From the NCBI GenBank assembly GCA_951406725.2, contig OX597835.1, positions 35,092,001-35,156,000 on the forward strand: a stretch of 64,000 nucleotides of DNA, given 5' to 3'. Origin of the DNA: Octopus vulgaris (lineage: Eukaryota). The notes beneath the pieces are model-generated. The model saw nothing but the letters and a program-made list of their open reading frames with translations. It was not told where the DNA came from and did not search any database. The position numbers and the translations under genes were made by a program. Each line of letters begins with the position of its first letter. The first letter of the stretch is position 1. Positions 10,839 to 59,363 of the stretch are shown here, one piece after another.

Positions 10839-11308
10839 ATATATTTAGTGTAGGAAGAAATGGAGCTGAACGAAGATTTAACAAAATTCCTTTTTATTAT
10901 TTTCTACATATGTTTCAAAGGCTGCAAAGTCCCTAATTCGGATTGAATAAGGAGTCCATTTTGCAGCTTTCTCTTCAGGAAAATCCAGGAACTTAATTCT
11001 CCAAGCTTTTCGACAAACGCTCACGAGGAGCCCATGGGATAAATGGCACAAAACTGTCTATCAATATGCGTTGACGCCAGGCTGGGTCATATGTAGAAAA
11101 TAATAAAAAGGAATTTTGTTAAATCTTCGTTCAGCTCCATTTCTTCCTACACTAAATATATAAAACTTCAAATTTCCGCACTAAGGCACGGGTTTTAGAC
11201 CCCATGGTCGTAACCTCAACCGTGATTTTTCTGTTGTGATTTTTGCTACCCAGGTATCGGTCATCATTTGAATAGTCCGTAATAAGATAATTCATTTATC
11301 TACTTCAA
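10839..11308. mobile_element. PLE-like element with perfect 74-bp inverted repeat (10839-10912 / 11088-11161), flanked by (TA)n
   Basis: Arms are exact reverse complements; an HHR overlaps the left arm and the spacer. Confidence 0.7.
10900..10983 (-). ncRNA. Type I hammerhead ribozyme
   Basis: ttttc CTGAAGA gaaagctgcaaa...tttgcagccttt GAAA CATATG TA gaaaa: 5-bp stem I, stem II pairing at 11 of 12 positions, palindromic stem III, GUA cleavage triplet, intact core. Confidence 0.8.
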
Positions 11309-11751
11309 TATATATATATATATACATACATATATATATATATATATATATATATATATATATATATATATATATATATATATATATATATATATATATA
11401 TATATATATACACGTACATACATATATATAAATTATATATAGTATATATACATAAGTACCTATACACACACATCTATTTATATATAAAATATATAAAGAT
11501 AAATTATATACAGCCTATATGCATAAGTACCTATGCACACACACACACACACATATATAACCTATATACATACATACATACATACATACATACATATATA
11601 TATACATATACATATACATACACACACACACACACATATATATATATATATATATACACACACACACACACACACACATATATATATATATATATATATA
11701 TATATATATATACATAATACAAACCTATACATATATGTAGGTACGGTAGAA

Positions 11752-11980
11752 ACGAGCTGGCAGAATTGTTAGCACACCGGGCGAAATGCTTAGCAGTATT
11801 TCGTCTGCCGTTACATTCTGAGTTCAAATTCCGCCAAGGTCGACTTTGCATTTCGTCCTTTTGGGATCGATAAATTAAGTACCAGTTACGCACTGGAGTC
11901 GATGTAATCGACTTAATACCTATGTCTATCCTTGTTTGTCCTCTCTATGTTTAGCCCCCTGTGGGTAATAAAGAAATTGG
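11752..11980 (+). mobile_element. SINE family B
   Basis: cgagctggcagaattgttagcac...gtgggtaataaagaaattggtat. Confidence 0.85.
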
Positions 11981-13039
11981 TATGTATGTGTGTGTGCATG
12001 CACCTATCTATCTATCTATCTATCTATCTATCTATCTGTCTATCTGTCTGTCTGTCTGTCTGTCTGTCTGTGTATCTGTATGTATGTACAGATACATAGA
12101 TAGATAAATGGACATACATACACATATATATGTATATATATAAAACAACCGAATGAAATTGTATATATATATGCACATATGTCTATACTTTTTTTATCTT
12201 GTTTTTACTTGTTTCTTTCATTACACTGCGGCCATACTGGGGCACCGCTTTGAAGAACCTGTAGTCGAATGAATCGACCCCAGTGCTTTTCTTTTCAAGC
12301 TTGGTAGTATTCTATCGATCTCCTTTGCCAAACTGCGGAGTTACGAATAATATATATATTCCTGTATGTCCATATATGATATATATGTATATGCATACAC
12401 ACACATTCGTACACACACGCATACATGTATGTTTGCGCATGTGTCTGTGTGTGTGTTTGTGTGTGTATGTGTGTGTGTATGTGTGTATGTGTGTATGTGT
12501 GTGTGTGTTTGTGTATGTATGAGTGTGTATGTGTGTAAAATTTAATTTATATATGACATGGATCATGCAACAATAACGAAAACGTTTGACTATATAAAAG
12601 TGAGTATACTATTATAAGAGTGAAAAAAAGTGATAGAGAGGCAGAGAAATAATGAGAGAGAAAGAGAGGGGAGAAATAGAAGTGTTGGGAGAGAGAGAGA
12701 GAGAGAAAGAGAGAGAGAGAGAGACACGAGGGGGCAGAGAGAAAAATGGAGAGAGAGAGAATGAGAGAAGAGGAGGAGAGAAAGAGACAGAGTAAGTCTT
12801 TGTAGATTCTGAATGTCAGCATCTGAGACTATTGTTGGCGATTGGATGGGACGGAGCATATTGGTCCAGATGGCGCCACTGCGGCAGCAGAAGGAGGGAG
12901 AGGCTTTGGGGGCACGTCTAGGGGTGGGACTTGTGTCTGCAGAAAGAACAGCTGGTCGGTCCTGCAGTAGACCTAATGGCGTTTTGGAAGGGGCTTGATT
13001 GTGGGGTTTTTGGACATTGTGGCGATGCTAATTGTAATG

Positions 13040-13600
13040 ATGATGCTGAGGAGGAGGATGATGATGATGTAGTGATGGTAGTGCCAGTGGTGTTGGTAGT
13101 TGTGGTGGTGGTGGTGGTGGGAATGATGGTATGGTTGTTGTGATAGTGGTGGTGATGATAATGATGGTTGCTGTGGTAGTGGTAGTTGTAATAGTAGTGG
13201 CAATGATGCTGGAGGTGGTGGTGGTTGTGGTAGTGGTGGTGTTGGTGATGATGTCGATGATGGTGCTTATGATGGTAATGGTGATGGTGGTGGGAATGTC
13301 GGCGGTGGTGGTGATGGTGGGTGGTGGTGGTAGTAGTGGTGGTGATGGTAGAGACAGTGGCGACGGCGGTTGTGATGGTGATGGTAGTGCTGGTTGTAGC
13401 GATGGTAATTCTGATGGTAGCGGTGATGTTGGTGAGGCTGGGGGTAGTGGTGATGGCGCTAGTAATTGTTAATGGTGGTGGTGGTGGTCACGGCCAGGTT
13501 AATGGTGATCGTGGTGGTGGCGATGGTGGAGGCGGCGACGGCGGTGGCAGTGGTGGTTGTAGCAGTGGTGGTAGAGATGGCTACGGCGGTGGTGATGATG
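13040..13600. repeat. Degenerate (GGT/GAT)n low-complexity tract
   Basis: Directly visible; stops in the three minus-strand frames I translated, and only short low-complexity ORFs on the plus strand. Confidence 0.85.
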
Positions 13601-14607
13601 AATTGTGCTTATGTTGATGAAGTTGATGTTGCTGTCCTTGCTGATGGAAAAGTCTGAGGATAAAACGTATTCCTACCGTGACATTCTCGTCTTTGCCAAC
13701 ATGTTTTATATGTTTGTCTGTGTTGTGTGTGTGTGTGTGTGTGTGTGTGAAACCAAAGTCTCATCATCTATTGTGTCCTTTTCAAAGACAGACGTTAGCG
13801 ATTTGAGGGAGATTTGGCTGCTATTTCCAGATGTAACCGTCCTGTATTAACTAAGATCTCCCGTACAATTTCAGCTCAGGTGATCTTATAAAAAGATAGT
13901 AGGATGTGATTTGAGGGAGATTTGGCTGCTATTTCTAGTAGCTCATTTTGAGGCCACCCTGTTTGGTTCAATTAAAGTAGAAATGCTGTCGGAGAAATGA
14001 ATCCAATTTTCTTACTACTACTACTACTACTACTACTACTACTACTACTACTACTACTACTACAAATACTACTACTACTACTGATAATAATAATACTGTT
14101 GTTGCTGCAGTTGTTCTTTGTTAGGCTACTGGATGAGTATACTTTGGATCAAAATCTTTCCAACCAAGGCCAACCTGTGATAGCGTGTGGTTTGAGTAGG
14201 TTTTATCTGTTATTTCAAGCAGATTGATCAACTACTCCCTCATTGCTTCTCAATGCTAGCGTTGTTGGTGGTTAAGTAGGGTTAGGGGTGTCTCAAAGAT
14301 GATGGTTAGAGGTCATTGACCTGATAATTAATATTGGTTATTATGATGGCATTAGAACTGAAACAGGACTGCGATAATTACACACACACACACACACGTG
14401 CACTCACGTCTTTCTCCTCGCTCTCCCTCTTTTCGCTCTCTCTTTCTCTCCCCCATTCTCTTCCATTCTCTCTCTCTCTGTATATATATACTCTTTACTC
14501 TTTTACTTGTTTCAGTCTTTATATATATATATATATATATATATATATATATATATATATATATATATATATATATATATATATATATATATATATATAT
14601 ATATATA

Positions 14608-58009: not shown

Positions 58010-58353
58010 TCATTATTTAGTTCATTTCAAGATTTCTTGTCAATAGAGAAAGAACCAGCTTCTAACCAAGATCTGAGGCTCCTTCATTGGAATTTAAACA
58101 TCAACAACAGGGTTTTTGTTTGTTTGTATGTATGCATGTATGTATGTGCAGATTTGTATGTTTTACGAATGTATTCTCATGCATAAATTCTTCGAATGAG
58201 CTTTCTCCTTTTTGGTTTTGTGAAGACTAATTTCTCAAGATTGGTATTTAGGCTGTGTGTCACATATCCCGGGGTCCCAATAATTACAGGTATAAACCTG
58301 AACTTGTAATCTGCATAGAATAACTGCAGATTTCTCAATAGTTCAGCATAGGT
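58010..58353 (-). mobile_element. 5'-truncated RLE-type LINE (R4/Dong-like) in (CATA)n
   Basis: TYAELLRNLQLFYADYKFRFIPVIIGTPGYVTHSLNTNLEKLVFTKPKRRKLIRR, followed by a 3' UTR; (CATA)-type repeats on both sides. Confidence 0.75.
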
Positions 58354-58971
58354 GTATGTATGTATGTATGTATGTATGTATGTATGTATGTATGTATGTA
58401 TATGTGTATATATGTATGTATGTATAAATGCATAGCTGTTAGAATGTTTGAATGCATGAACGTATGTATGTATATATGTACGAACATATGTATATAAGTA
58501 TGTATGCATGCGTATGTGCATGTATGTACATGCGTATGTACATGTATATATATTCTTATACATATATGTGCATATATGTGTCGGCGTGTCTGTGTGGTTA
58601 AGTAGCTCACTTAGCAACCACTTTGACTTCGGGTTCGGTCCTAATGTGCGGCACCTTTGGCAAGTGTCTTCTACGATAGCCGCAGATCGACCTTTTGAGT
58701 GATAGAAGCTGTGCTGAAACCCGACTCCGCAGACACAGAATATGATGATATAAACCAACAGATACACCGTGTAAGTTCTATAGCTGGTCATCCGTTAGGT
58801 TCCAAGTTCACAGTTGAGGCCGGAGCTAGGGGACCGTAGTAGGCTTCCGAGTCAGCAGGTATATATTAAACGAAAAGAAACACAAAACCAAGACCGGACG
58901 TGTATCTCAGGTCATTTAGAATTTTTAATTAGAGTAAGGTGAATCAAAAATGGAAAAATAGAAGTAATTTA

Positions 58972-59049
58972 TGTCTTACAGCTGTTTCTGAGATATCCCA
59001 GGTGATGGGCCAACATCCCTATACACTGGCTATTCCGTCTTCAGAGACA
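58972..59049 (-). ncRNA. Type I hammerhead ribozyme
   Basis: tgtct CTGAAGA cggaatagcc...ggatatctca GAAA CAGCTG TA agaca. Confidence 0.7.
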
Positions 59050-59130
59050 AGGTGTGCATGCAGGAAAGTTCCAGACAGAGAATTCAGTGTATATAAATGA
59101 ATAAAACAGTGGATAGCAGAATACACATCT

Positions 59131-59208
59131 TGTCTCTGATGACAGGACACCCTGTGTATGGAGACGTTGACCCATCACCTGGGATATCCCAGAAACAGCT
59201 GTAAGACA
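59131..59208 (+). ncRNA. Type I hammerhead ribozyme
   Basis: tgtct CTGATGA caggacaccc...gggatatccca GAAA CAGCTG TA agaca. Confidence 0.7.
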
Positions 59209-59363
59209 TAAATTACTTCTATTTTTCTATTTTTGAGTCACCTTACTCTAATTAAATATTCTGAACGACCTCAGATACGCGACCTGCCTTGGTTTTGTTT
59301 TCCTCTTCTTTGATTTTATATATATATATATATATATATATATATATATATATATATATATAT

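Follow-up and report, generated by a model that had tools for sequence, protein, structure and literature searches.

How did three short inverted repeats with no sequence in common come to share one architecture, in which two arms lie head to head, a hammerhead ribozyme (HHR) motif is carried along and both outer ends meet runs of TA? The question is raised by a 64-kb stretch of the Octopus vulgaris genome (assembly GCA_951406725.2, contig OX597835.1, positions 35,092,001 to 35,156,000 of the forward strand); we call this whole stretch the window and count all coordinates from its first letter. The three elements are E1 (10839-11308), E2 (14608-15119) and E3 (58862-59320). We conclude that they are probably heavily 5'-truncated insertions made by endonuclease-bearing Penelope-like elements (EN+ PLEs) of three families, whose HHR-bearing pseudo-long terminal repeat (pLTR) ends stand back to back in (TA)n. 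The architecture and its likely mechanism are already in print; this is not a new system.

What is observed in the three elements is a pair of head-to-head arms, TA at the outer ends, an HHR motif 66 to 221 nt from those ends and, in E1 and E2, an extension on one side. An earlier note, made from the letters alone, had placed the inverted repeats correctly. The arms of E1 (10839-10912 and 11088-11161) are identical at 74 of 74 nt, those of E2 (14655-14824 and 14954-15118) share 95% identity, and the complementary stretches of E3 (58860-59059 and 59121-59320) contain arms 85-87% alike, with the likeness ending about 15 nt upstream of the HHR core. Compared with one another, the elements are unrelated in sequence (best cross-match only 14 nt, E 0.27). 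TA runs stand at every outer end, the shortest being 7 nt at 58860-58866, on the left of E3. The arms are unequal: E1 runs on for 147 nt on its right side and E2 for 47 nt on its left, and E3 has no such tail. Measured from the predicted cleavage sites, the outer ends lie at +66 and +213 in E1, +221 and +174 in E2, and +110 and +113 in E3, and nowhere do cleavage site and element end coincide.

Read from left to right, E1 consists of a (TA)n-rich flank (10748..10838), a long minus-strand arm with the HHR (10839..11087), whose 3' end lies 66 nt past the cleavage site, an inverted plus-strand arm (11088..11161) that begins at the helix III palindrome and contains neither HHR core nor helix II, the one-sided tail of 147 nt (11162..11308, plus strand) and a (TA)n flank (11309..11410). 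The short end lies at an ATATAT of the unit, which could pair with the target, a single case that proves little. E2 follows the same plan between (TA)n flanks at 14520..14607 and 15119..15200: its long minus-strand arm (14608..14953) carries a degenerate HHR, ends 221 nt past the cleavage site and includes the 47-nt tail (14608-14654), and its inverted plus-strand arm (14954..15118) begins about 4 nt after the cleavage site and has no HHR. The inversion junction falls on the 6-nt palindrome in E1 and on a predicted 14-bp hairpin (14916..14953) in E2. In E3, both the minus arm (58867..59059), which runs into the 7-nt TA, and the plus arm (59121..59316), which meets (TA)n at 59317..59363, carry an HHR motif. 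The unpaired centre between them (59060..59120) contains, some 40 nt ahead of the core in the plus arm, the sequence TATATAAA (59089-59096), a possible candidate TATA box. No head-to-tail (direct) repeat of the E1, E2 or E3 HHR occurs in the window, and these copies contain no partial-tandem direct pLTR. Directly to the left of E1 is a perfect 154-nt palindrome of microsatellite-rich DNA (10590-10743), either a recent fold-back at a TA site or an assembly artefact.

To describe the ribozyme motifs we used a descriptor made of the core, GAAA, a 6-nt palindrome, UH and helix I. Run on the window, it found four motifs, on the minus strand of E1, the minus strand of E2 and both strands of E3. The claim that each element bears an HHR on both arms thus holds for E3 only; E1 and E2 have one HHR each, and the second arm is clipped. 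The palindromes between GAAA and UH are, as had been noticed, different in each element (CATATG in E1, CCATGG in E2, CAGCTG in E3). Exact cores with a helix I of at least 5 bp gave 3 hits in the window and none in 60 block-wise dinucleotide shuffles, and a relaxed descriptor gave 4 hits in the window versus 1 in total over 60 shuffles. The type I HHR motif of E1 (10899..10984, minus strand) is the most complete, with a 6-bp helix I, core CUGAAGA at 10978-10972, 11 of 12 pairs in helix II, GAAA at 10916-10913, palindrome CAUAUG and cleavage predicted after 10905. The HHR-like motif of E2 (14825..14866, minus strand) has the core CCGAUGA with one mismatch, a 3-bp helix II, GAAA, palindrome CCAUGG and UC. 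In E3, the minus motif (58972-59049) has core CUGAAGA, palindrome CAGCUG, a 5-bp helix I and an atypical 49-nt helix II region; the plus motif (59131-59208) has core CUGAUGA. Helix II does not adjoin the core on either arm of E3 (helix II score 0). Self-cleavage of the E2 and E3 motifs is doubtful. Scanning E1, E2 and E3 against Rfam, a check that the earlier note had proposed, gave no Hammerhead family at E ≤ 10; a scan of the whole window was dominated by microRNA models on microsatellites (best 150 of 758 rows).

Other observations concern the E3 arms. Within the helix II region (59136-59195 on the plus strand, 58985-59044 on the minus strand), an additional small hairpin may form between the core and a stem of 8 bp abutting GAAA, and that of the plus arm includes a 14-nt palindrome. 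The result may be an HHR variant into which an extra arm has been inserted, or it may be decay. By eye, 59201-59276 of the plus arm looks intron-like: GTAAGA stands at the cleavage site and is followed by a CTAAT motif and, some 75 nt on, by CTCAG. PLE pLTRs can contain a short spliceosomal intron, and an internal promoter is also among the traits of EN+ PLEs. A search of metagenomes with the E3 core pattern, which served as a further control for the motifs of the window, returned 23 matches, all judged to be chance (helix I of 0-1 bp, no BLAST match to E1-E3), and the E1 HHR motif had no match in viral contigs or in metagenomes.

Folding set E2 apart. An imperfect hairpin of about 45 bp (14784..14905, minus strand) has the E2 HHR at its tip (z -5.46, 0 of 200 shuffles), and the E2 minus arm as a whole is strongly self-paired (z -3.74); the predicted hairpin may be a long helix I, or it may stem from an older fold-back. 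Extended helix I was significant for E2 only (z -0.3 to -0.8 for E1 and E3). Unconstrained monomer folds did not yield the HHR fold, a result that is uninformative for dimer-type HHRs, and when two copies were cofolded the palindromes paired between copies in E1 and E2 and not in E3. By the logic of the HHR, arms on opposite strands cannot make a dimeric ribozyme within one transcript (PMC4209133).

Next, we looked into how E1 varies among its relatives in public contigs, for which we aligned the contigs of 4 of the 24 runs listed to 10839-11312 at 80% likeness. Contigs matching E1 numbered 966, 1260 and 600 in three genomic-type runs and 66 in a fourth run, X8, so E1 is a high-copy family; we did not take summed contig depth as copy number, and since the RNA nature of X8 is a guess, we make no claim of expression. 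The long tail is a colinear part of the family: record 25 of X8 leads from the minus arm (10839-10954) straight into 11162-11255, and several of the contigs listed span the 11161/11162 boundary. Both E1 ends recur at TA, with loose ends at 11162 (10 contigs, run X5) and 11307 (1 contig, X8). A sister subfamily departs at 11141; in two contigs the end consists of GAT repeats. At 11087, where the long arm of E1 stops, other copies run on upstream (7 contigs in run X1, consensus agreement 0.78; 3 contigs in run X2, agreement 0.91), and we therefore regard the E1 arm as truncated there. The 15 joints listed of 22 comprised 13 head-to-head joints, 1 colinear join and 1 internal deletion. No two of the 13 head-to-head joints had the same breakpoint pair; relative to the cleavage site, the left arm broke at +12 to -175 and the right arm at +3 to +183. 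The E1 family thus shows variable junctions and recurring TA-linked ends. These 13 junctions, together with the eight single arms described next, contradict the idea of a fixed two-HHR unit of 460-510 bp. Sequence variants of the E1 family (40 listed of 70) spared the core, GAAA and the cleavage site; those listed in helix II included one that restores a pair, two that give G-U and two that break a pair.

With relaxed descriptors and BLAST we found eight further HHR-type arms in the window, with GAAA at 392, 15819, 23036, 25981 and 52988 on the plus strand and at 23668, 36231 and 49894 on the minus strand. None of the eight has an inverted partner within 1.5 kb. Seven reach (TA)≥4 within 130 nt downstream, compared with 18.8% of background positions (binomial, about 5e-5, calculated by hand). 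Five are copies of one minimal-HHR family, at 319-483, 15788-15920 and 52975-53090 (plus strand) and at 23567-23721 and 49785-49950 (minus strand). Their 5' ends are variable, and four share a 3' end that runs into (TA)n; the fifth copy is decayed. The four with an intact core have U for A at core position 6 (CUGUAGA or CUGUGGA), and copy 49785-49950 is flanked by TA on both sides. Two more minimal-HHR arms (36143-36320, minus strand; 23000-23135, plus strand) have the core CUGACGA and end at TA-rich repeats. The remaining arm, with an HHR-like motif (25925-26101, plus strand), has a 6-bp helix I, ends in (TA)n and has the helix III ACTC-G-GAGT, as in Hydra-2_aMil and Penelope-16_HM; it is likely the end of a Hydra-clade PLE. 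The single arms indicate that the double-ended form is one outcome of HHR-bearing, TA-anchored insertion and not the rule.

These features coincide with structural hallmarks of PLEs. All three elements have an HHR near the 3' end and an inverted 5'-truncated copy, and E1 and E2 have a tail on a single side. In both the E1 family and the five-copy single-arm family the 5' end is cut at variable points and the 3' ends are fixed. Structurally, then, E1-E3 behave like EN+ PLE insertions. By analogy with PAc, the protein of a Poseidon element of Anolis carolinensis, a protein with reverse transcriptase (RT) and GIY-YIG domains would nick a (TA)n tract on both strands. From each free 3'-OH, cDNA synthesis would then be primed at one of two start sites inside the RNA, downstream of the HHR. 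The tail would be the stretch between the two start sites. Both cDNAs would stop early and then be joined at their 5'-truncated ends (5' to 5'), sometimes at a short palindrome or hairpin. The HHR would be copied too, since about 100-200 nt separate it from the start sites. Such two-strand, two-start-site priming would account for the outward ends, the one-sided tail, the variable junctions and the lost second HHR. The link to PLEs and the priming from both strands at (TA)n that the earlier note had proposed fit published in vitro work in which both strands of AT-rich DNA were cut and extended by a PLE protein (PMC11167929). Its further proposal, that priming starts from the RNA 3' end, does not agree with element ends 66-221 nt past the cleavage site, with E1 and E2 arms that stop at different points of one colinear unit or with the published RT, which starts internally at two sites (PMC11167929).

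Several points weigh against this explanation. Family-level evidence comes from E1 only. Eleven of the 13 junctions have fewer than 30 letters on one side at 80% likeness, so that other repeats are possible and each junction is weak singly, and E1's own junction was not bridged by any contig among those listed. The E1 HHR had no two-sided compensatory change among the 40 variants listed of 70. The E1 tail, at 147 nt, is far above the 30-40 nt in print. A coding parent was sought in 146 open stretches of the window (the 145 longest of 229 non-repetitive stretches, of 840, and the E2 frame), and no Pfam RT or GIY-YIG match was found in them; the sole match above the cut-off was a broken Tc1/mariner transposase remnant (23942-24376, plus strand; HTH_Tnp_Tc3_2, E 1.6e-08). 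Weak searches with a 77-codon frame in E2 (14608-14838, minus strand) gave no Pfam or protein relative, and a weak search with a 59-codon frame in E1 gave no protein relative; we treat both frames as non-coding. The Craig supplement (PMC8557442), in which line breaks and cut runs could hide matches, showed none of the 12-nt HHR motifs of E1, E2, E3 and the single-arm family. Full-length EN+ PLEs have a single ORF that encodes a telomerase-like RT and a GIY-YIG endonuclease. Truncated PLE copies would be without an ORF (open reading frame) in any case, so the missing ORF in the window does not decide.

The alternative that survives best is that at least one of the families is a dedicated element without an ORF, mobilised by PLEs and resembling non-LTR (long terminal repeat) retrozymes or MRC1. 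If a PLE protein acting in trans copied a short RNA unit, processed by the HHR, into (TA)n, the result would be the same head-to-head footprint. The lack of a PLE ORF among the stretches searched, and of protein relatives for the E1 and E2 peptides, is as expected of such elements, and so is the abundance of the E1 family; the E2 minus arm is strongly self-paired, as retrozyme RNAs are. Retrozymes have been argued to be non-autonomous PLE derivatives (bioRxiv 10.64898/2026.07.22.740005), and non-autonomous Chlamys elements are known (PMC8557442). The last 14 letters of the X1 consensus upstream of 11087 are all A/T and recur in a variant end downstream, and by eye this may be a short head-to-tail join; however, the better-agreeing X2 consensus at the same position goes into different sequence, and the 14-letter match may be chance. 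The window holds no head-to-tail HHR repeat of E1-E3, and ordinary PLE copies, most of them fragments without an ORF, would be expected to show tails and truncation at variable points (PMC4209133, PMC8969392). We regard it as possible but unlikely that at least one family (E2 most plausibly, given its rod of 45 bp as a candidate helix I, or the abundant E1) has no coding parent. Such a family would be a dedicated hammerhead RNA that is non-autonomous, depends on the TA-targeting enzyme of a PLE and inserts mostly in double-ended, head-to-head form and not in tandem retrozyme arrays. If this were true, the genome would hold thousands of natural footprints of two-strand, two-start-site priming.

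A further alternative concerns E3 only, namely that single arms of two sister subfamilies were inserted separately at one TA site, or that a dimeric RT copied two different RNAs in one event. The difference between the E3 cores (CUGAAGA and CUGAUGA), the divergence of the arms and the point at which their likeness stops would suit two templates, as would a TATATA in the E3 centre and the prediction that the PAc protein is a dimer (PMC11167929). By eye, however, the 49-nt helix II region differs between the arms at 10 points, 8 of them transitions, with no compensatory change, which fits neutral decay of an old copy, and we consider both variants of this alternative distinctly improbable. That all three are miniature inverted-repeat transposable elements (MITEs) or foldback DNA transposons with TA target-site duplications, their HHR motifs being chance or captured, is very improbable, since, despite their short ORF-less inverted repeats with TA flanks, the symmetric arms of E3 that reach both ends and the Tc1/mariner remnant elsewhere in the window, the repeat reaches only one terminus in E1 and E2 (overhangs of 147 and 47 nt), the E1 interior differs from copy to copy (which largely refutes it for E1), the HHR motifs exceed chance and MITEs cannot account for the eight single HHR arms, whose TA ends are polar.

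The truncated-PLE explanation has modest practical value. Short head-to-head copies can be taken for MITEs or unknown repeats in annotation, and the presence of 11 or more PLE-type ends with an HHR in 64 kb points to a very large load genome-wide. The junctions and arm ends of the E1 family could serve to test in vivo the two-strand, two-start-site model, which is now based on one in vitro protein. Elsewhere in the window are imperfect palindromes without HHR motifs (15536-15640, 88%; 54485-54665, 82%) and an abundant SINE-like (short interspersed nuclear element) repeat with internal partial tandem units, present in both orientations (16450-17000, 19092-19454, 19743-20392); its copies at 19749-19977 and 20163-20392 are inverted with 96% identity.

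The suggestion that the system was undescribed does not stand, because HHR pairs on opposite strands (PMC4209133) and Penelope-13_HM (PMC8557442 supplement) are already in print. We found no literature on hammerhead elements without an ORF in cephalopods. For O. vulgaris, 31 Penelope-like families with recent activity have been reported (PMC13282606), and the repeat library of that study may include the families described here. Retrozymes are tandem repeats that have been linked to pLTRs (PMC7229834, bioRxiv 10.64898/2026.07.22.740005). Non-LTR retrozymes resemble E1-E3 in being ORF-less and probably PLE-dependent, with a type I HHR and a palindromic helix III. They form head-to-tail repeats (170-400 nt, one HHR per unit) and circular RNAs, whereas E1-E3 are head to head with variable junctions. 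In Schistosoma mansoni, dual minimal HHRs on opposite strands, 100-700 bp apart, were described in 2014; the motifs are mostly single and were attributed to probably truncated PLEs, and palindromic helix III and dimer cleavage with low activity are also described (PMC4209133). Helix III is absent from those dual motifs, whereas E1-E3 have an even palindrome of 6 nt, and two HHRs occur only in E3.

Among PLEs themselves, (TA)n-targeting HHR-bearing Hydra elements and inverted 5'-truncated copies with a 30-40-bp tail at one end are described in PMC8557442. Hydra-1_Obim, with an HHR at 2403 of 2507, and Penelope-13_HM, which has HHRs on both strands and an inverted 5'-truncated copy, share with E1-E3 the (TA)n preference and an HHR about 100 nt from the 3' end (PMC8557442 supplements S1 and S2). 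Most of the Hydra HHRs listed there have a 3-4-bp helix III with a 1-3-nt loop and sequences unlike E1-E3; the single arm at 25943 is closer to them. The PAc study of 2024 (PMC11167929) describes a protein that cuts and extends both strands of AT-rich DNA, with two internal RT starts that match the tail ends and thereby define the tail, and with HHR cleavage not needed in vitro. The PAc ORF starts in helix II of the HHR, and no matching ORF start was found in E1-E3. Head-to-head pLTRs, tails, palindromes at inverted junctions, solo pLTRs and mobilisation in trans are reported in PMC3846280, and the same PLE hallmarks are given as curation guidance in PMC8969392. E1-E3 differ from the canonical EN+ PLEs (Penelope/Poseidon, Neptune and Hydra; PMC8557442, PMC3846280) in that their arms enclose no ORF and no parent ORF could be tied to them; E1 also differs in the length of its tail. 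They share with these elements the inverted 5'-truncated copy, the extension at one end, the palindromes at the junction, the type I HHR about 100-200 nt from the 3' end and, as in Hydra, the (TA)n sites.

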